A stretch of 64,000 bases of DNA from Basidiobolus ranarum. Taxonomy: Eukaryota. Under the pieces are notes generated by a model. It saw only the letters and a program-made list of their open reading frames with translations, was not told the origin of the DNA and did no database searches. The DNA lies in assembly GCA_040143965.1 (NCBI GenBank), contig JASJQH010006877.1, positions 1 through 64,000 of the forward strand. Direction: 5' to 3'. Position 1 is the stretch's first letter; every line of letters starts with the position of its first letter. Of this stretch, positions 15,297-61,261 are shown one piece after another. The translations under genes and the position numbers were made by a program.

Positions 15297-15893
15297 ATGC
15301 ACCTCCTAGATGATTTGATACTTTCAAGGTAGTTGGGGAAGATACGATAGCTTTATTTATGAGATAAACTGCCTAATACGTATATATATACATATTTCAA
15401 TATCTCTGTTACTGAACCAAAAAATAAAGGCTATTTGCGCCTCATCAATGGGAATATAATCTCGCCTTTTTACGTAGCTAAATATAGCGCTCTAATAAAG
15501 TATGTCACCCAATGACGTAAATAAATTTTGACCGATGAATGAGCCTCAAAGTTACCAGGATGTTCTTAGCCAAGTGGCTCGAAAGTTAAAATGATGGAGT
15601 ATTTGCTTCATTATTCGCAGGTCAGCACCATTATTAATGGTTTGTTCATGCTCACTTCATTCTGCATGAATTGAATGCCAAAAAATGTTTACTTAATAGG
15701 CGAAGGGAATACAATTTAGCAGTCGCAAATGGGATATCCCAAAGATTTTAAATCTCAATCGAACCCTTAACTGCGGCAGTCGATCGGAAATTCTCATTTG
15801 GAATTGGTAGACTGCTAGATTCAAGTTACAGAATAGACAACGGAGCAATATATCTAGGTAAACTTCTCTTTTCCCTACTCTGCGAGCTTAGTG

Positions 15894-17680
15894 ATGTGGG
15901 AAAAAGGTGAGAAAGTTATTCTGGAATTTCCGGTACATCATAAAAAAAAAGAAGGTACTATATACCTGACTACGAAAAGACTCGCTTGGAGAATGAAAGG
16001 TGCTACTAATCTTGGTGTCTCGTTAGTACATTCGAATTTTAGAGGTACTTTCCTTCTATATCACTCTTCTCTTAGATTTTTAGTAATTTTCACCTCAAAA
16101 GCCCAACATGTCAGTCCAGCCTCGTCGGCGAAAATAATGTTGAAGCTAACAGTTTCTGACAAAGGAGTAGAGCTCTCATACACCTTTAACTTTGTTTCCC
16201 AGAATGCCAGAACTGACCGTGAACAGATAAAAGATAAAATCACCGAGATTTTGGCTAGGGTTCTGACCGCCACTGATCTAAATACACTTCCCAAACCCAC
16301 GGGAGCCTCGGACAGTAGCTCTGCGAGTAGCGTTCAGCCTCAAACTCGTCCTGCTGTTTCAGCGATTGACTTGAAAATTCGGCAAAATCTACTTAGTAGA
16401 AACGAAGAACTTGGGAAATTGCATCAACAATTAGTTGTCTCAGGTCATATTTCACAAGAAGAATTCTGGGAAACGCGACAAGTAAGTCCCCGTATTTACA
16501 AATAATACGCTTGGCTAAGTAAATCATGTTAACACCTATATAGCATTTACTGGAGAATCAAACCGCGAAGATGAATCAAAAGCGCGGCCAATCATCAGCT
16601 TGGGTCAATTTGAAACCCACCCAACAAGAAGGAACAGACCTTCAGTATACCTTAACACCAGAAATCATCCATGGCATATTTCTTCAATACCCGGCAGTTA
16701 AAAGGGCATATGATGACAATGTCCCGGATAAATTGTCAGAAGAGGCTTTCTGGAGACGGTATTTTGCGTCGAAGTTATTTCATCGAGTACGACGATCACG
16801 AAGTACTGCTGACCACAAAGACGATATATTTGACAAATATCTGGAGGAAGATGAAATAGCAATAGCAAACTCTAGCAAGAGCATACGCATCGAAGATCTC
16901 CCTAGTGTCTTGAATTTGGACGCGACTTCTGAAGACCATCCAGAAACTGGAAACAAGCCAAACTTCACTATGGTCCCTGGGAGCAACTCTCAGCCACTCT
17001 CATTGATTAGACGATTTAACTTATTCTCAGAGCAGATTCTGAAGAACGCCGACTCGCACGATCATGTCCGAAGAAAAGAAGATATTGAAAAAGAGATCTT
17101 GTTGCCAGATCTACAGGAGAACCACGACTCAAGCGTGCTATACCTCGATATAAGAGATCAAACAAGATATTTCGAAAACATTGGAGAATATACCCACGAT
17201 AACGTAGGCGTAGATTACCCAAGCATTTTGTCTAGATTTAAGAGAGGTTACGAGGAAGTTGATCTGGGATCAGTGGAGATCGATCCATTTATTCAAACTG
17301 ATGTTTCACGGAGTATAAGTAGAGACATTGTAAACAAGCGGCAAGCCCATAATTATGACATTAGACAGTTGGACATTCCTCCCAACGTTTTACGAGAAAT
17401 CAGCAGTTGTCAGATTAGTGCAAAAGAGCTTCTGAGACACTTTTGGGCATCTATATTACCAGAATTAGACGAGTCCATTGAAACAGCACGAGACAATCCT
17501 AACGAGAAGAAGGCAAAAAGAATGATTGAAGCATTGAAAAAAATAAACGAGAGAATGAGGTCAGCCATGATAGCTGCAGAGGCTGAGCGCTTTGACCTAG
17601 ACAAAGTAGAGAGTATGATGAAGCCTACCATTTTGGCAATTTCAAACGCATTCAGCATTCATGCAACTCGTAATAGTTAA
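15894..17680 (+). CDS. TFB1: TFIIH subunit Tfb1/p62 (PH-like plus BSD domains)
   Basis: N-terminal KKKEGTIYL..SPASSAKIMLKL; BSD motifs LHQQLVVSGHISQEEFWETR and IFLQYPAVKRAYDDNVPDKLSEEAFWRRYF; ELLRHFW. Confidence 0.9.
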
Positions 17681-17912: not shown

Positions 17913-21595
<3,683 letters not shown>

Positions 21596-22100
21596 TATTC
21601 ACTATTTAGTCTTCCTCTCTTTTGGTGAATATCTAACCTTAAGGTACGTCAAACCTTCCTCCACTTAACTACTCATCAGATTGGACTGCTCTCAATTTAT
21701 AAAATTCATTCGAGTATAAATTTTTCCTCTCCATATTAGTACACAATCTTATTGACATTCAATACCACGCTGTACACAACTCAGGTAGCATATAATCACG
21801 TGATTAAGGTTCACTTTCTATTACCGTAATACCAAGTATGGATGTTGGAATATTCCGATGCAAGATTTACTTAGTCATTTGCCGAGTAATAGATGGTTTG
21901 AGTAATGGATGGTTTGAATAATAAGAAGGATAGAGATTCATTATTACACAAACTCGCCAAGTGGAATCCATAAAAGCATCATTTGAAAGACTAACGTGTG
22001 TGTAATAATTTTATTAAGCCATCGAGAAGCGAAATTACATAGTAGAATGAGAGAAACTCCTACTTAATGCGAAATATTCAAAGGGGTTTACTTACCGCAT

Positions 22101-23229: not shown

Positions 23230-23976
23230 TTAAAACTTCATGCCTAGTCTGTGTTCCATAGAAACGTGAACATCCATCATCTGAGTAGACAAGGCAGGAT
23301 CTAGGAAGAGGAGTAACGGATATAAATATCGGAATTTGAATATAACTATTAGATAATAATACTTACCGTTCAAGTAATCTTCAAAATCGATATGTTCATC
23401 TTTACCGGTCAAGATATCGAGACCAAAGTTTGAAGAGGGAAGTACTGGAAGACGACGGTTCTATTTGTACCATTGAAATTATTACTAATGGAAATCATAA
23501 ATTGGAGTATATACAGTTACATACGCGTGAGACGATATCTCTTTCCATAAGGAGTCTGACTGGAGCGTGGATACCATAAAGCTGACGTTGCATATTCAAC
23601 TTAAGATTGGTTTGAGTTTCATCCCACTTTGAAATATCACCCAACAATTAGTAATTCGAAATTATTAATTAAACCTAATATCAAATCTTACGTTTTCTAG
23701 CTTTGATTCTAAAGGATGACCAGCGGTGACATCGCTAGCAACTGATTTGAATCCGTGACGAAGAGTATCATGAACTTTGAAAGAGTTGGTTGTTTCACTG
23801 AAACTATGCTTCTCAGATTCAGAGGAGTAGTTACTAGGAAAGATTCGAAGAGAATTGGAGGCCTAAATATATAGAAGTAATAAAATTCATTACTACGTCG
23901 TATACATTTGTAACAAAAGAGTAACAGATCTACTGAATTTAGAAAAATCCCAAGAAATAAAGTGAATGTTTACCAT
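23230..23976 (-). CDS. UMP1: Proteasome maturation factor Ump1/POMP, 5 exons (first coding exon is the ATG only)
   Basis: Spliced reading: VHDTLRHG..HPLESKLEN/WDETQ..RQLYGIHAPVRLLME..LDILTGKDEHIDFEDYLN/..HVSMEHRLGMKF*. Confidence 0.92.
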
Positions 23977-24362
23977 AATTTATGTGTAAAGTTTGAAAAC
24001 TGATTCAAGTACACCACTGTATATTAGAGTTTACTTTCACTTGTTACTTGGTTATTTTCCGTTGACGCAACCCAATTTGTGATTACGTACACAAATGCTA
24101 ACAAGCTACCTCAAATGATTGAAATTTTTATATGTTGATCAAATCCAGCAGTAAATTCCAATAATTAGTGTAACTACATGAAATGATTAACCAAACCAAA
24201 ACTATTCACTCCAAAATTGCCAATCCACGAAAAATTCACTTAACAATAGCCCCTTGTATAATCTTAACCCCATATATACTCAAGATAAATTTGATTTCAG
24301 TTTAAGATATTCTACAAATTTATTTACTTCTCATTAGTTCTAGCTGGTTATTAAGAAGCAAA

Positions 24363-26851
24363 ATGACTTCAACACGACCAAGTAGAAATTCCGAAGCGCG
24401 TGGTTATAGAAACGCGACTAATGAGCATGATCGTTTGAAACGAGCACTTGTAGAGCCAGTGCAATCATGGTAATACATATTTATTTTACAACAGAGCCTT
24501 TGACTCGACACGTTTATTTGTTTGGGCATCAGGCGTGGTGAAATATTTGATTCAAATACTGGTTGAGTAGCATAAATACTTACTAATCTTCATTTATATT
24601 TTACATTGGCTCTTGTACAAAGGGTGAAAAAATGGACTTTTCCAAATAATAGTAAACATCTACAGATCTACAAATGGGTAAAAGGTAAGAAAGCATTTTT
24701 TCAGTAGATAGATATTTCGATTATCTATATTGACGAAGCTCCCTTTTTCTTACCATTTATTTCTTCGACCGCTTGAATCTTATAGCTGACAGAGAGCACG
24801 ATTTTGAGGACGATTCCTCTGACGATGAGCCCTATCCAATAGCAGCTTCTGAGGTGAGCTATTTGTTTTTTTTGAATAACACTGAAGTTTGGTCTAAAAT
24901 TCTTTTCAATATACTATCCAGACCGAAACCTCTACACTAGCTAAAAAACGAGGTAAAAGCGACGAGGAGATAATTGATGACTCGATAAAGCGACAAAGAT
25001 CAGATGCTGGTGGAGATACAGATGTGGATACACCTAAATTAGATAATTTCAATACGCCACAAGATGATACACCTGGTTCAGTTACAGTGACACATGCTTC
25101 TAGCGTGAATACCCCAGACGTAAACTCAACCATTGACACGCCGATAGATAAGGCTTCTGATATGAATTCTCAGTCATCGGCCAAAACTAGTTCACCAGTT
25201 AACACTACCTCGATTGAAAATACCAATTCACAAATGAACTCACCCATGGAGGAAACTGTTGATTCATCCGTTGAAACACCTTTAGAGAGTACGTACGCAC
25301 CATCAGTGGATAGCCCACCTGATTCCGTTCCTGTATCCAGTGGCAATATGATTGAGAAATCTGGCTTAAACGAATCTTTTGTAACCACTCCTTCAGAAAA
25401 TGCAGAGCTAGAGAATGATTCAGCTGAGCAGCTCGAGGTTGATTCTCAAAAGGACAAGTCAGAGATTGAAACTGAAATTGAACAAAAACCAACACCTAGT
25501 AACTCTAATGACTCAAGTGAGCAGTTACTCGAGAGCAATTCTCAGAAGGATACATCGGAAGTCGAAGACAACAAAACATTAACTAACTCCAATGATTCGG
25601 CTGAATCGCTACTCGAAGGGGGTTCCCAAAAGGATATATCGGAAGCTGAGCAAACCAACACAGAGAATCAAATTGAAGTTTTACCTAGTCAAGAGAGCTC
25701 AAGTGCTGATGTTAACATGGAGGATGCTTTTGTAGAGGAGAAAGATTCACAAGAGGTATCAGTGACAGAACCAGTTAGCCCAACAGGTGTTGAGACTGCT
25801 CAAGAAGAGATAACAACCACGCTAAATGATACCATTTCTCCAATGGAGGAGTCTGAACCAGACCATTCAATTTCGAATGAAGTAGTGGATGAAGTATTGG
25901 CTTCCACTGAATTAGATGAATCTTCAGGACAGTCGAACAACATCAAAACACCACCTGCAGAAATCGCTGAGAGCCGTGAGCTTTCTGAAGATATGACTGT
26001 CGATACTAACAATGAGACTACAGAGGCAGAAAAAGAAAATCGCTCGGATATACAAAGTCAGGCAGTAGTCAATCCCACCAATCCATCTGATGTTGCTCAA
26101 CAAAACCCAGAAGCACCAGACTCTAGTGCTGGAATTGAGTTGCAGAGCGAGCTCCAAGATAATATTGGTGATTAAACACTTTTTGCAAATGTAACCGTGT
26201 AATGCTTACTAAACAGTATTTGGTTTTTTTATAGAATCAGCAGCCCAGGTAGAAGATATTAACGCACCAAACGAGAGTCAATCTTTCGATGAAGTACCAG
26301 AAAATATTGAGATTGAAAAAGAATCTCCAACTTTGGAAGTACAAAGTAATCCTACCGAAGTGGCGAACACTACACAAACAGAGGATTTAAAGCCTGATGC
26401 TCAGAGTGTGTTGTCGAATGCTGATGACAATCAATCAGTTCAGATCACTTTACCAGAAGCAAAAGAAGACGATATTATCACTGACAGTATTGCTGTAGAA
26501 AACTCCAAATTAGCTGATGATACCACGGAACTCCCTGAAGAAATCACACATCAAGTCGCTGAAAATCCACCACAAGATGTCAATGAAGTTGATACCAATG
26601 ATGCAGTGCCTGAGATTTCTCTATCTGAGAATGTCACTCCTCAGCTCTCGACCGATCCGGTAAAACACACTCAAGACGAAATATTGGCCACAGAACCTGA
26701 AGCAGAAGGTTTGGGAAAACCAGCCGAAGAGATCGTCCCTGCGGAGAATGAGACTATTGAGGAGAAACAAGAAAGTCCGCCTAAAGAAAAGCAGAGTTCT
26801 GCTTTAGGAGCTTTGTGCAGTTATTCGGATGACTTATCCGAAAGTGACTAG
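24363..26851 (+). CDS. Long acidic low-complexity protein with a BCL7-like N-terminal domain, 5 exons
   Basis: Spliced N-terminus MTSTRPSRNSEARGYRNATNEHDRLKRALVEPVQSWVKKWTFPNNSKHLQIYKWVK; putative bipartite NLS KKRGKS..KRQR; E/D/S/T-rich remainder. Confidence 0.75.
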
Positions 26852-27292
26852 GTTCCTTTGGACTACTATTTGAGTGAAAAGGGAAGTTTGTGAAAACTCT
26901 CAAGCCACCTAAATCTAGATAATTACTTCACTACGTAATGTATACTAATATATATGAACTCGACAAGTGTTTTTTCAGTTTTTATATCAACACTTTAAAA
27001 TAAAACGAATCTTGAAACATCTTTTGTGTTGGAATCGTGCCATTTTGAATGAAGTAGTCAGCTCTTTTAACAGATCAAGTAACCACAATAGCATTGATAG
27101 TACAACTCAGGGTTACGTTTAGTTTTGATTCAAGGATTTTACTTTGTTTGCTCGAAATACAAGATACTTGGGTTGCAATCTACTACAAATACGAAAGATA
27201 TAGGGGGAAAGATGATCCATCAGGATTATTTCTACTACTTTATAAATATGCGTTGTTCAAAATTTGCTGACTCGATAAAAGTATCAACGAGT

Positions 27293-28913
27293 TTAATGCT
27301 CATGACTATGATTGCTTCCAGCGTGTTCAACAATCTCAATATTGTCTGTTAATGGAGCCGGGCAGCATGCAGATGGGTCGCAAGCTGATGGGCAACGGAT
27401 CAAACATTGCTCCTAAAGAATTCAAATATTTCGGTTAGAATTTGGTGTACATGGTCGAAAGAAATTTCAACACAAACAGTAAGTAAATAGAGCAAACGAG
27501 GAAATCAACGTACAGTAGTATCTTGTGAAGTGGTGTCAGTCACAGTTGCTAATTTGGGAAATTCGGGTTGAATAGTTACGGAGTGAATTCCATAGGCGTG
27601 AAGCAAGTCTTTGACACTGTTGGCAACTCCCATATAAATCTCGCTGTCTGTTACATGAATATGAACCGAGGCAATGGTCTTGATATCGGATAACTGCCAC
27701 ACATGAAGCTCATGAACTGAGATAACGCCAGGTATCTACATGAATGCAAAATATTAATCTATGAATTCTGAAGAATATGGCTGAAGGGTTTTTTACATTT
27801 TGCATCTCATCCTTAAGGATATCGATAGGAATTGAGTTGGGAACACCTTGCAATAAGATAAAGCATGTGCTTTTAACTAAAAAATAATATCAGGATTAAG
27901 ATCTTTAACCACGGAAAATTCCCACATTTTAAAACTTACCCAAGGGAAGTGAGAAAGTTAGAATGAATGCAGTAATCAAAAGACTGATGATAGGATCCAA
28001 TAAGAATCTCTGTTCAAACTCGCATTTCCAGATAACAATAGAACTAACAATTACAGCAACACTACCAAGAGCATCCCCTAAAACATGAAGGAATACACCA
28101 TGCATGTTAAGTCGACCTCCATCTGCCGCTTTATGGTCGTGATCATGATGGTCGGCGGAGTGGTTATTCGAATGAAGAAGCGAAGTATTTTCATTGGGTT
28201 GATGTTGATGTTCCGCATCAGCACAGATGCGACGGACTTCATCGGCAGTTTGAATAATAGACACAGGAGTGTGAAGGGGATTGGAATCCGAGTGAGAGTG
28301 GGAGTGGCTGTGACCATGAGCGTGACCGTGCTCTAAAGTAACTGAGATGAGAATACAGCAACAGAATATATCTAAAAATAAGAAACTAACCGTGGAAAAG
28401 AAGTAACCCAATGATATTTACTAAAAGACCTAAACCACCCACAATAAGGATGAGTTGAGGGTTCTCGATCTCTGTTGGAATATAAATATAAGTATATGAA
28501 CTTGGTAATCATTTTACTACAGTTCATACCTCTAGGTTCAAAGAATCGTTGGATGGCTTCGACAAAGATGGAGAAACAAAGAGCGACCAAGAATACACCA
28601 TTAATTAAGGCACCTAGAATCTCCGCACGCTGCCAACCGTATGTATATTGGGACGAGTGATTTTTGCTCTCTCCAAGCTGTAATAGCAAAATTGTGTAAG
28701 TAAGACTATATACGGTTGTCTCAATACATAGTGATTTTGATAATATACCTTGATGGCGTACAGAGCAACACACAAACTCAACAAATCGCTCAACATATGA
28801 AAGGAATCGGCAACCAGGGCAATAGAGCCCACCGAATAACCAACAATGAGTTCAGCAAAGAAGAACACAGTGGTGAGGAAGAGCAATAGTGAAAGACGAG
28901 TTGTTCTTTCCAT
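27293..28913 (-). CDS. Cation diffusion facilitator, Zrc1/Cot1/ZnT1-like zinc transporter
   Basis: SIALVADSFHMLSD, YTYGWQRAEILGALINGVFL, His-rich loop, LNMHGVFLHVLGDALG, VHELHVWQLSD, HAYGIHSVTIQPEF, Cys-rich tail CLIRCPSACDPSACC. Confidence 0.94.
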
Positions 28914-49570: not shown

Positions 49571-51665
49571 TCATGTAGAACGAGTCCAAGAGCTTAAACA
49601 TAGTGTAGCACGTGCAATTTCAGATTGATCCAATCGAGCTAGCATCTTTGAGTAGTTATCATTCGAGGAATTGAAAAGTTGTTCTGGTGGAGGGACCATA
49701 GCTGAGATACTTAAGAAATCTCGAGCAATCTTTGAAAGAATAGGATATGAGTTTTGATTGGTTTTCCACCATTCTAGTGCACTAGAATCTGGTGGAACCA
49801 CGGGACTAGCAAAATACATTCCTAATTCATTCGAGTCCGAATAGATTCGGCCACGTTTAAGAGGTCGGGAGATATAGTTGTTGAGATTTAAAGAATTCGT
49901 CTCCGGTTCGTGTTTAGAGGATGTATGTGCAGGTCCAATGCCTGATAAGCTGTAGATCTCAATAATTGATACTAAGCATTCTTTTACATGCTCAATATTC
50001 ACATCATCCGAGAAATACTCCAGCTTAACTCGGGGATCCAAGACCACTGGTATAAATTGTAAAGAACTGAAATCATTCCAACTCCAATACTCTAAAAGGG
50101 TATGAAGCATAGAATTAATGGTTTCTACTGAGATCAAAGGGAGCTTCGATGGAACATCTCGTAGAATTGAAGCTAAACCATGGAAGATTGTGTATACTTT
50201 TCCTAGTGTAGATTGACAAGGAACAGTGAGAATCTCAGCTGCTTGATTGAATGGCTGAAGGAGGGCGCTGTATTGCTTTATTCTTTCCCAATCACTGACG
50301 TTCAGGTGGTCCTTTAGGTCAGCATTTTGCTTTAGAATAGTTTGTATCACCTCTTGATGGTTCAGGAAGCACTTCAGCATATTAAAGGTGGAATTCCACT
50401 GAACCGGATTGTCAAGCTCCAAAGGTTGCTGAGGTCTTGCTGCGTTTCGTTGCAACTCCATCAATTGAGAGTAGATCTCATGCGAGTTCTTGATATAAGT
50501 GATAACTGTTCTGACTTTACTCACAACTACGCTTTCATTCTTCAACCCTTCTTGAACAACCAAATTAAGAATCTTAGTGGAACAAGAGTAGAATTTGAGC
50601 TCCACCATTTTCTCCTGAAGTATCGAAGTCAAAATCGGCATTCCTAGAAGATAATGAGAGCGTTTAAATTCCGACTCTCCTGGGAAATAGATGGACGCGT
50701 ACATAGATAAAGTAAAATTAAGAAATATTTAACATACCGGCCATTAGGTTTGGTGCATTGTCCGAAGTTATGGCAATCACCTTTCCAGCGAGATTATAAT
50801 CAATCAGCACGTTGTAAACTATAGCAGCAATCTGGTTGCCATCGCTGCTTGGATCATAATCTTTTACATCTAAAAAATACGTTTTTACGTCCCATTCGTT
50901 ATCAATATACTGGATTGAAAGTGCAAGATACGATCTCAGATCGCCAGATGTCCACAAGTCAACCGACAATGCGACTTTAGATGCCTCCTCGAGTATTTTT
51001 GTCTTAAATAATCCTTTTTCTTTTTGGAATCGGTGAAACGCTAACTGCTCGAGTTTATTCGGATCAGGAAGAACGCAGCCTTGACTTATTTTACCAATGA
51101 AGTTCATGAAAGAGGGTCTCTCCACAACTTGAAATGGTTGAAGGTCACTGATCAACCAGTCTAGTAGTGCTTCTTGCCAATCTTTAGAAGGAGCCCGATA
51201 TTCTTTGAGTGGTGAGCTTGTCTGAAGAAGTTCATTTTTCAGAGTCTCGACACTTTGGGGTGAATTGGGTAAGAACGTATTCCCTTGATTGAGTGGTGAG
51301 CTCGTTGTGTTCATTTGAGAATGCTGCATTTGTTGTGGTAAAGTAGATGTGTTTCGTCCAGGTAAAAGTGAGGGGCTTATGTTACCCATAGGAGAGTATT
51401 GGTTTATTAAACCCGGAGAAATAGAACCTGTATGGTTGGAGCTAGTTTTGAACCTATCGCCAAGAACAGACGCGTGCTGTGACCTCAAATGATATCTCAA
51501 AGGCGTAGTTGCAGTCAGTTTAGAGAAGGTATTTGTGCAATACCGACACTGGTATCTACCCTCTCTAGCCAAGTAAAAATGGTCCCAAACATCGCTTCTT
51601 CTCTTACTTTTGGGCGCGGAATGGTCGTTAGTTCCTTTCGTATCTGGTGTATTAGGAGCCTCCAT
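49571..51665 (-). CDS. hAT transposase-derived protein (BED finger, RNase H-like DDE core, hATC dimerisation domain), 1 intron; likely domesticated
   Basis: RRSDVWDHF..CRYC..LRYHLRSQH (BED); ALSVDLWTS; ITSDNAPN; VVLDPRVKLEYF; ALEWWK..YPILSKIARDFLSI. No TIR or TSD seen. Confidence 0.88.
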
Positions 51666-52209
51666 TGTGAGCCAAAACGCGAATAAACTATTGAGGAAGT
51701 CTGATGAAGTGATGTGTTTCGGTTAATGTGCAGAGTAGCAATCAGTCGATTAAATTGATCTTTTCTCATCGTGGACACAATTTTATTTGAGCGTTTCAAA
51801 CGATTTGTCATGTGAACATTAAATCTGGCTAGATATTGATATAACAGGGGAACCGTAGATTGATCGTCCCCCAAGAAATCGACTCTATTGGCTCTTCTCG
51901 AATCAAGATCGACCTGTATCACTATAGATCACGGTAATAAATATGATCGATAATCTGAGAATGATTGGTTGTTATTAGGGGAGTAATGTCAATCAAATCG
52001 ATCATATTCGCGTACCAAAGATCAATGGAGGATTAGCATTATTGAAATCAAGAATTAAATCAAATTAATTTGGATTGAATTGGGTTTACACTATTTGTGA
52101 TTTACTTCTAATTATTCATATCGTGGACATGCGTAGGGTTAGCATTCCTTAATGTAGTAGATTTGTGAGTGAAGAAAAGTCTATACATAATGGAGATACA
52201 AGAAAATAA

Positions 52210-58945: not shown

Positions 58946-61261
58946 ATGAGCCAATCTCGAACTGAAGCTATCATCAACAGCGTACACAGACCTTCTCGCA
59001 AGGTTGAGTATCCTACAATCAACGGGAAAGGAATTTATCCTTCCGAGTTTTACGGTCAAAATGTTCTTACTCTCAAGGCTCTTTCCAAAGCTTTACCTAA
59101 ACCAATATTCGGTCAATTTCTCAAGCAAGTGAGAGGTCGTCAACATCTTGATAAAGTTACTGCTGACGCGGTTGCTCATGCTGCTCGCGTTTGGGCTATG
59201 GAGCGTGGTGCCACCCATTATTCTCATTGGTTCCAACCTCAGACTGGCACTACAGCGGAGAAGCACGATTCTTTCTTGACTTTGAAAACTGGCCCTGCTG
59301 ATGAGGTAAATACATACGTAGTCAATTGTACTGATTTTCAACGACTAACAGTTCTGTTTTATTAGGTTTATGTTCTTGAAGCTCTGTCTGGTTCTCAACT
59401 TCTTCAATCTGAACCAGATGCTTCCAGCTTTCCTTCTGGTGGTATGAGAACTACCTTTGAAGCTCGTGGATACACTGTATGGGATACCACTAGTCCAATG
59501 TTCATTCAGCCTGGTCCTCATAATACTTTCGTATTGTACATTCCTTCCGTTTTTATTTCCTACAACGGTGATGCGTTAGATGAGAAGACTGTTCTTCTTC
59601 GTTCATGTGAAGCTGTTTCTAAAGCTTCTAGCAGATTATTAAACATTTTACAACCGGTACCTGCTGGTGTTCCTCCTCTCGTTAAGCGTGTTCATACTAC
59701 TCTGGGAACAGAACAGGAGTTTTTCCTCATTGACCGCTCTCTTTACGCGCTTCGCCCTGATTTGAAAACTTGCGGTCGCACTTTGATTGGAAACCTTCCT
59801 CCCAAGCATCAACAAATGGAAGATCATTATTTCGGTAGGATGCCTACTCGTGTATTAGCTGCTATCAGCGAAGTAGAACTTGAGCTTACCAAACTTGGTA
59901 TTCCGATTAAAACTCGTCATAATGAAGCTGCACCCGCCCAATTCGAAGTTGCTCCTATTTTTGAGGAGGCTGTTGTCGCTGTAGACCATAATCTTGTAAC
60001 TATGGAAGTTATTCACAAGGTTGCTCACAAGCACAATTTAAAGGCTTTGTATCACGAGAAGCCATTCAAAGGTGTTAACGGCTCTGGAAAGCATTGTAAT
60101 TGGGCTTTGTCCACTGATCGTGGTGAAAACCTTCTTGATCCTACTGTTAAACCAGAGACAAATTACCGTTTCTTGCTTTTCTTGCTTGCTATTCTTCATG
60201 GTGTTCACAAGCATGGTGGACTTCTTCGTGCATCCATCGCAAGTGCAGCTAATGATCACCGTCTTGGTGCTGCTGAGGCTCCACCTGGTATCATCTCTGT
60301 TTTCCTTGGTGAACATCTCAACGAAGTACTCAACTCTATTGAAGAATCTCGTCCTCTTAAGACATTTTCGCAACCCCATATCCAATCTATTAAGGTTGGT
60401 GGAACTGTCCTCGATGTGAAGGTTGCTTCTCTTCCCAATATCTCCCGTGATCTCACCGATCGTAATCGTACTTCTCCCTTCGCCTTCACTGGTAATAAAT
60501 TTGAGTTCCGTGCAGTTGGATCCAAACAGTCTCCTGCCTTCCCTGTTACGGTTCTTAACGCCGCTATCGCTTCCGCTTTAGAGGATGTTACAAATGCTCT
60601 TTTACAACAAAAGGGAGATAAAGATTTCGTTACTGATGCCGATAAGGTTGCTGTTATCAAACAATTCATTACATCTACCAAGCCCATTCGTTTTGAGGGT
60701 GACAACTATTCTGAAGCATGGGCTCAAGAGGCTGAGAAACGTGGTCTCCCTAATATCCGTGGCTCTGTGGAAGCTTTCAGTCAATTACGCCTGGATTCCC
60801 ACAGAGACATGTTGATCAAGACTACCGGTATTTTCACCGAATCCGAATTAAATTCCAGATATCATATTCTCAACGAAAGATACTCAAAGGATGTCATCGT
60901 CGAGGCCAATACATTACGTACTATGGTTCAACAGCAAGTATTCCCTGCTGCTTACGAATACAGAAGAGAACTAGCTACTTCTGCCGCAGCTTTAGCGGCT
61001 ATTAATGTTTCTAACGCACCCGAAGTTACATTGCTGAATCGTTTGAGTCCTATTTTGACGGATCTTCAATCTAGTAATGAAAACCTCCTTAACGAAATTG
61101 AGAAGGTGATGGAATTGGAGCATGAGGAACAAGCTCAGGCTACATACAATATTATTGTTCCACTCGTAGAACGAGTTCGTGAACTAGCTGATCAGTTGGA
61201 AGATATTGTTGCTGACAAGTACTGGCCTTTACCCAAGAACACCGAGTTGTTATTCTTCTAA
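58946..61261 (+). CDS. Glutamine synthetase type III (GSIII/GlnN), one intron at 59306-59365
   Basis: GATHYSHWFQPQTGTTAEKHDSF, EPDASSFPSGGMRTTFEARGYTVWD, LGTEQEFFLID, KTRHNE, HEKPFKGVNGSGKHCNW, DRNRTSPFAFTGNKFEFRAVGS; about 750 aa. Confidence 0.95.

Follow-up and report, generated by a model that had tools for sequence, protein, structure and literature searches.

The analysed window is a 64,000-nucleotide stretch of Basidiobolus ranarum DNA (assembly GCA_040143965.1, contig JASJQH010006877.1, positions 1 to 64,000 of the forward strand), and the gene considered here spans positions 24363 to 26851 on its forward strand. The gene is split into five exons, and the N-terminus of its product resembles that of the animal BCL7 proteins, small subunits carried on the actin/actin-related protein (ARP) module of SWI/SNF-type chromatin remodellers. 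The stretch 23800-27200 was inspected, exons were joined by script and stop-to-stop frames were checked; the resulting features, including secondary structure predicted with AlphaFold2 (AF2), are as follows.

24363-24469, forward strand: exon 1, residues 1-35 and two bases of the Trp36 codon; contains an arginine-rich N-terminus (R5, R8, R13, R16) and a predicted helix at residues 11-28 (AF2)
24470-24622, forward strand: intron 1, 153 nt, GT...AG, phase 2, within the Trp36 codon
24581-24587, forward strand: TACTAAT, a branch-point-like word inside intron 1
24623-24684, forward strand: exon 2, final base of the Trp36 codon, residues 37-56 and first base of codon 57
Residues 36-56, mostly in exon 2: beta-hairpin in the AF2 model, with residues 36-41 as its first strand (W36-x3-W40) and residues 51-56 as its second (I51-x2-W54)
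24685-24785, forward strand: intron 2, 101 nt, GT...AG, phase 1
24786-24853, forward strand: exon 3, residues 57-79, in which a conserved D-R-x3-F segment precedes an acidic run
24854-24921, forward strand: intron 3, 68 nt, GT...AG, phase 0
24922-26167, forward strand: exon 4, residues 80-494 and first base of codon 495; acidic, rich in Ser, Thr, Asn and Pro, without a known domain
24943-24999, forward strand: candidate segment resembling a bipartite nuclear localization signal (NLS), residues 87-105, KKR, a 12-residue spacer and KRQR
26168-26234, forward strand: intron 4, 67 nt, GT...AG, phase 1
26235-26851, forward strand: exon 5, completing codon 495 with two bases, then residues 496-699 and the stop codon; forms the acidic tail, without a known domain

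All four introns are canonical GT-AG introns with compatible phases, the ATG at 24363 is the earliest in its own stop-to-stop frame, and the spliced coding sequence (CDS) of 2100 nt yields 699 amino acids with a single terminal stop. A preliminary description of this locus had proposed that two small exons at 24363-24684 splice together, and this proposal holds: they are separated by a GT-AG intron, the peptide quoted for the junction is reproduced exactly, and the spliced product is identical over its full length to P0001, the 699-residue NCBI entry "hypothetical protein K7432_000075 [Basidiobolus ranarum]". P0001 was the sole protein found in a database search with the exon 1 frame, and its public annotation gives the same gene model, no function and no precomputed Pfam domain. 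Because the spliced product is identical to P0001, the gene was not missed by annotators; the small exons were lost only to a plain open reading frame track. The public gene model may be purely computational, and if exons 1 and 2 were not in fact spliced to the long acidic frame the true product would lack the BCL7-like module. We regard such an artefact as very improbable, given the four canonical introns with their compatible phases and the contiguity of the junction peptide, together with KWVK-x-DR-x3-F and the acidic residues that follow, in homologues from many independently annotated fungi. This contiguity argues that the exon 1/2 junction is real. The contigs of some homologues also barely exceed the CDS (P0044, 349 aa on 1190 nt; P0072, 316 aa on 1029 nt), as would fit transcript-derived sequence.

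Most of the product consists of a tail of ~640 residues that is acidic and disordered. Asp and Glu make up 23.0% of the entire 699-residue protein and Lys and Arg 6.3%, with Ser, Thr, Asn and Pro plentiful; exons 4 and 5 match zero Pfam families at an expectation value (E) of 10 or below, and the whole-protein model supplied by the ESM Atlas has a mean predicted local distance difference test score (pLDDT) of 0.36. The very long acidic tail is thus as the preliminary description had it, and residues 87-105 fit the bipartite NLS consensus as a candidate signal. The only tandem repeat in the tail is a single 24-nt, two-copy array, which is nothing notable.

The first indication of kinship comes from the N-terminus. 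Searched against Pfam, the spliced protein matches a sole family at E<=10, BCL_N (PF04714; E 0.018, 15.4 bits), with residues 22-55 aligned to positions 13-47 of the 49-position profile, and with exons 1 and 2 taken singly, or with the exon 2 frame, no family is found at this cutoff. Taken alone, this match of P0001 is suggestive and not sufficient. The same family recurs among the fungal homologues described below, in 16 of the 24 proteins of the first batch and, at E<=1, in 64 of 81 members, the runner-up family occurring in 5 of the 81.

At least 80 fungal proteins make up the family to which P0001 belongs. A phmmer search with residues 1-60 against 1.84 billion representatives returned 25 proteins at E<=1e-3, of which seven reached E<=1e-10, and a profile built from 22 aligned N-termini (A1) returned 71 at E<=1 among 8000 scored candidates; a word-indexed search with residues 1-80, directed at shorter proteins, gave 2 candidates, none of which scored. 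All named members are fungal and all are entered as "hypothetical", "uncharacterized" or "unnamed". Many are from Mucorales (Mucor, Rhizopus, Absidia, Lichtheimia and Backusella among them), and others come from Mortierellaceae, Glomeromycotina (Paraglomus, Cetraspora, Acaulospora, Entrophospora), Calcarisporiella, Syncephalis, Dimargaris, Spiromyces, Entomophthora and Basidiobolus itself, which the NCBI taxonomy places, as B. ranarum, in Basidiobolomycota outside Dikarya. One member is a basidiomycete protein (Termitomyces P0085, E 2.8e-6). In every member except a few evidently faulty gene models the module is N-terminal. Across the 81 full-length members W54 is invariant, and R5, R8, R24, L25, R27, Q31, P32, V33, Q34, W36, K38, W40, K53 and K56 are conserved in at least 90%; since the conserved columns lie in the N-terminal module and mean column identity is only 12%, this module is the sole conserved part of the protein. 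After the hairpin the family alignments share the consensus KWVKSDRxxxF(E/D). The earlier designation of the gene as an animal-like BCL7 ortholog is retained as to its BCL7 likeness and changed as to its singularity, P0001 being one of the many members of a fungal family and not a single ortholog.

Two further profiles were made from these proteins, A2 from the full-length family and A3 from 21 diverse N-termini that include the Termitomyces and Spiromyces proteins. The protein P0022, one of the 25 phmmer matches (3037 aa, with an unrelated mix of Pfam families and a match to query residues 13-43 only), was omitted from all alignments, and A1 and A3 also omit P0004 and P0006, whose models continue past KWVK in apparent intron read-through. 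In these two Mortierellaceae proteins KWVK-S-D-R is replaced by KWVK-C-K and then by unrelated sequence, as expected from read-through of a phase-1 GTAAG intron, which suggests that these genomes have mis-annotated gene models and an intron matching intron 2 of Basidiobolus (24685-24785) in place and phase. Two other members carry additional domains, P0053 (Rhizopus arrhizus, 496 aa) with WD40 propeller families and P0062 (Mucor ambiguus, 467 aa) with the UniRef name 'C2H2-type domain'; these are probably annotation fusions of neighbouring genes and not true architectures. Two distinct family copies each are present in Radiomyces spectabilis (P0025, P0080), Blakeslea trispora (P0065, P0074) and Parasitella parasitica (P0052, P0059), and such pairs fit the genome duplications known in Mucorales.

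The similarity to BCL7 is seen in both directions, BCL_N being the sole Pfam match of P0001 and human BCL7A and BCL7B leading the search of PDB sequences with A3. Against 177,635 distinct PDB sequences, A1 gave four matches at E<=10, two to different constructs of human BCL7A (0.015 and 0.016), one to BCL7B (0.03) and one unrelated (0.96). The more diverse A3 gave lower values for human BCL7A, E 8.4e-4 and 8.5e-4 (22.6 bits), with BCL7B following at 3e-3 and nothing but unrelated chains from E 1.8 onward; the alignment covers BCL7A residues 7-49, the whole of its N-terminal module.

The residues shared with BCL7A include those that experiment has tied to ARP binding. According to PMC13580576, BCL7A, Rtt102, Snf70 and Tam8 bind ARPs through a beta-hairpin whose first strand carries WxxxW and whose second carries hydrophobic-xxW, and the paired substitutions W31A/W35A and I45A/W48A weaken binding of BCL7A to the BRG1-ACTB-ACTL6A trimer. 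In the A3 alignment to the PDB chain, BCL7A W31, W35, I45 and W48 correspond to W36, W40, I51 and W54 of P0001, so that both motifs are present as W36-VKK-W40 and I51-YK-W54. Both A1 and A3 show W36 and W54 without variation and W40 in at least 90% of sequences; the family's most conserved residues are among these ARP-contact positions, which fall on both predicted strands. In many Mucorales, Thr occupies the hydrophobic position. The loop between the motifs has 10 residues in P0001 and 9 in BCL7A in the same alignment. In the 49 of 85 collected proteins that a regular expression matched, the loop has 9-13 residues, and most of the remaining 36 have a non-hydrophobic residue, usually Thr, which the pattern disallowed.

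Two other features of the N-terminus bear on the comparison. BCL7A R7 and R11 are reported to anchor in the H2A-H2B acidic patch, an anchor described as missing from Rtt102 (PMC12708618). In the A1 alignment R8 of P0001 aligns with BCL7A R7; the segment shifts in A3, so no residue equivalence is claimed. The second feature is the position of intron 1, which splits the W36 codon. W36 aligns with W31, the final residue of human BCL7A exon 1 (amino acids 1-31 according to a figure legend in PMC9942420), a correspondence at the level of the codon. By a rough chance estimate, an intron would fall within one codon of the same site in a ~56-codon module about 1 time in 20, and the coincidence thus provides modest independent support for kinship with BCL7.

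The predicted fold of this region is consistent with the BCL7 comparison. AF2, run on residues 1-64 with A1 as the input alignment, places both motifs on the two strands of one beta-hairpin after the helix at residues 11-28. Mean pLDDT over successive ten-residue blocks is 50, 54, 72, 81, 77, 83 and 64, the values of 81, 77 and 83 belonging to the hairpin-bearing blocks that cover residues 31-60. A Foldseek search with this model against 350,542 PDB chains gave 47 matches at E<=10, and the two leading ones are BCL7A chains, both taken from ncBAF structures: 9wbz_O (E 0.19, probability 0.87, 38% identity) and 9wc1_C (E 1.9, root-mean-square deviation 1.3 Å over 27 columns, 44% identity). At rank 16 is a 53-residue chain of the yeast SWI/SNF entry 7c4j (E 7.6), for which no chain identity is stated. 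Comparisons in the ESM Atlas gave feature scores of 0.83-0.86 and template modelling (TM) scores of at most 0.47, all below the tool's bar and to be read as leads only: a BCL7A cluster (TM 0.39), a SANT_DAMP1_like cluster (TM 0.44), a Basidiomycota cluster with Rtt102p in 12% of its members (TM 0.41), and small clusters of hypothetical proteins from Basidiomycota and Ascomycota. The structural results, which come from a predicted model, accord with those from sequence but are weak, and they depend in part on the sequence motif itself.

Several results weigh against reading the gene as a BCL7-type subunit. The curated gathering score of BCL_N is 25 bits, an operational threshold and no biological feature; P0001 at 15.4 bits lies under it, and so does every member of the 81-member family, the best of which scores 20.4 bits (E 4.8e-4). 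A phmmer search of the PDB with the whole protein found nothing at E<=10, nor did the full-length profile A2, and only the trimmed N-terminal profiles succeed. The AF2 model is of moderate confidence (mean pLDDT 69.2; predicted TM score 0.33), the Foldseek search of 350,542 chains gave no match at E<=1e-3 (best 0.19), and when the Foldseek chains were realigned with VIA-align, none of the 46 that aligned reached Z>=2, a null result that is unsurprising because only ~45 residues are ordered. The Foldseek and profile searches lean on one short motif and so are not fully independent of each other, and membership in a SWI/SNF complex is assigned entirely by homology. Each statistic is modest, and the case rests on the agreement of several lines of evidence. 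The BCL7-like N-terminus named in the preliminary description thus stands for the first ~56 residues, with a BCL_N match, a reverse profile match and a helix and hairpin in the model, and is qualified as to its statistics, which are modest and fall below the Pfam threshold.

Some of these points also speak for a resemblance by chance or convergence, in which case the gene would encode an acidic nuclear protein confined to fungi and functionally unrelated (e.g., histone-binding or chaperone-like), with a short Trp-rich N-terminus that merely looks like BCL7. The similarity is limited to ~45 residues, all BCL_N scores are under the Pfam threshold, the structural scores are non-significant and most of the protein is acidic and disordered. 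However, a chance resemblance does not readily account for a best match in both directions whose E-value, 8.4e-4, is over 2000-fold below that of the next match, for the recurrence of BCL_N in 64 of 81 members, for the coincidence of experimentally defined ARP-contact positions with the family's most conserved columns, or for an intron position shared with BCL7A. On balance we consider this explanation unlikely.

A second alternative is that the hairpin does bind ARPs and does so in another complex, either INO80, as an Ies4/YY1-type subunit, or SWR1/NuA4, as a Swc4/DMAP1-type subunit. YY1, Ies4 and Swc4 are described as likewise using Trp-bearing beta-hairpins on ARP/actin heterodimers (PMC11761322), and in the ESM Atlas the SANT_DAMP1_like cluster (TM 0.44) lies near the BCL7A cluster (TM 0.39), both being sub-bar leads. 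Of such proteins, however, the PDB searches with A1 and A3 returned only BCL7A and BCL7B and no YY1, Ies4, Swc4 or DMAP1 at E<=10; Pfam returned BCL_N and no INO80 or SANT family; and the N-terminal location, the helix before the hairpin and the intron position all agree with BCL7. Assignment to one of these other complexes therefore seems to us improbable.

The best explanation is that the gene probably encodes a BCL7-type member of SMARCJ, and so a putative small subunit on the actin/ARP module of SWI/SNF-type remodellers. By analogy with work on BCL7A, Rtt102, Snf70 and Tam8 (PMC13580576, PMC11761322), the hairpin would insert W36 and W40 of strand 1 and I51 and W54 of strand 2 in a hydrophobic pocket at the junction of two HSA-bound actin-related proteins. 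Insertion at the Snf2 HSA helix would stiffen the ARP module, and the stiffened module may in turn tune the coupling of ATP hydrolysis to nucleosome sliding and DNA translocation. More speculatively, the Arg-rich segment N-terminal to the helix may contact the acidic patch of H2A-H2B in the manner of BCL7A R7 and R11.

The presence of such a protein in a fungus bears on the published distribution of BCL7. Two papers report no BCL7/BDH orthologue in fungi and place its loss in an early fungal ancestor (PMC9170682, 2022; PMC11761322, 2025), the first having surveyed Rhizophagus irregularis among others, and PMC11761322 proposed Rtt102 as a structural homologue. In September 2026 BCL7, Rtt102, Snf70 and Tam8 were united by structure as SMARCJ, and a motif search reported in the same work found homologues in fungi (PMC13580576). 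Such supplementary tables of PMC13580576 as were searched contain none of the words Basidiobolus, Rhizopus, Mucor, Mortierella, SMARCJ or BCL7, and its figure S18H-I may already list some of the proteins; our literature searches found nothing for BCL7 with Mucor and only PMC9170682 for BCL7 with Rhizophagus. A universal ARP-binding hairpin subunit is thus already published, and the present analysis adds a BCL7-type form detectable by sequence and widespread in zygomycete lineages, with at least one basidiomycete representative. Besides Basidiobolus, it occurs in ~80 proteins from Mucoromycota and Zoopagomycota that lack annotation and in a single protein from Basidiomycota. Because the module is present in these groups, if the BCL7-type form was lost or diverged, the event is moved to within Dikarya. 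The "hypothetical proteins" of the family gain a testable annotation, and the genetically tractable Mucorales become candidate systems for studying the subunit.

Comparison with the known members of SMARCJ shows where the fungal proteins agree with BCL7 and where they differ from it. As in BCL7A, BCL7B and BCL7C, the module lies at the extreme N-terminus and runs from an Arg-rich start through a helix to a short hairpin with WxxxW and (I/V)-x-x-W, and as in human BCL7 the tail is disordered and the first intron falls at the hairpin's leading Trp. Unlike human BCL7, the fungal family keeps its own Q-P-V-Q before the first Trp and K-S-D-R-x3-F with an acidic run after the hairpin. The tail of ~640 residues contrasts with BCL7 chains listed in the PDB at 203-216 residues in total; the Pfam score, being sub-threshold, also separates P0001 from BCL7, and the Arg-anchor residues are not equatable one to one. 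The plant proteins BDH1 and BDH2 are a second non-animal case, related to BCL7 only via a hairpin-containing BCL domain and, as described in PMC11761322, bearing a plant-specific N domain before the hairpin; they bind ARP7 through conserved Trp residues (PMC11761322). The Trp-bearing hairpins of YY1, Ies4 and Swc4 in INO80 and SWR1/NuA4, which bind actin/ARP heterodimers (PMC11761322), have no sequence match in our Pfam or PDB profile searches.

For Rtt102, no link by sequence emerged. Rtt102, Chaetomium Snf70 and S. pombe Tam8 are described as sharing the WxxxW/hydrophobic-xxW hairpin and the proposed ARP-module role, with loops that are far longer by the published residue numbers (W29 to Y60 in Rtt102, W38 to F121 in Snf70), and the authors state that the SMARCJ motif is undetectable by ordinary alignment (PMC13580576). 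No Rtt102 chain appeared at E<=10 in the PDB profile searches with A1 and A3. The Rtt102p family (PF09510) has no match in the 35 proteins whose Pfam tables were inspected, and it is absent from the 25 most frequent families of the 81 members, 18 further families, presumably each in a single member, being unlisted. The profile comparison with BCL_N and Rtt102 suggested in the preliminary description thus gave a sub-threshold match to the first and none to Rtt102p, and its idea that the gene bridges BCL7 and Rtt102 finds no support in the PDB profile searches or in the 35 Pfam tables, the sole hint being the sub-bar ESM Atlas cluster of Basidiomycota proteins (TM 0.41). It is possible, though we consider it doubtful, that the family is nonetheless a sequence-level intermediate: fungi would have inherited a BCL7-type subunit with arginine anchor and hairpin, nucleosome engagement would predate the animal-fungal split, and Rtt102, Snf70 and Tam8 of Ascomycota would descend from that subunit by loss of the anchor and expansion of the loop and would not be independent inventions.

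Three neighbours of the gene serve ordinary housekeeping functions and show no evident connection with it, as expected in a fungus, and no actin or ARP gene lies within the window.

15858-17680, forward strand: TFIIH p62 gene (PH_TFIIH and BSD)
19440-21598, reverse strand: alanyl-tRNA synthetase gene
27505-28851, reverse strand: cation-efflux (CDF) transporter gene with a His-rich loop

Elsewhere in the window, two adjoining open frames at 49571-51722 on the reverse strand, with a BED zinc finger and a C-terminal dimerisation domain of the hAT family, are probably a hAT transposase gene. At 59366-61261 on the forward strand a 631-aa open frame with GSIII_N, Gln-synt_C and Gln-synt_C-ter corresponds to a type III glutamine synthetase, an enzyme found mostly in bacteria; the title of one paper (PMC7466969) links Basidiobolus with horizontal gene transfer. 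Finally, an exon-sized frame at 1086-1685 on the reverse strand matches the class-II DAHP synthetase family (E 1e-67), which is the plant and bacterial type, the usual fungal enzyme being of class I.

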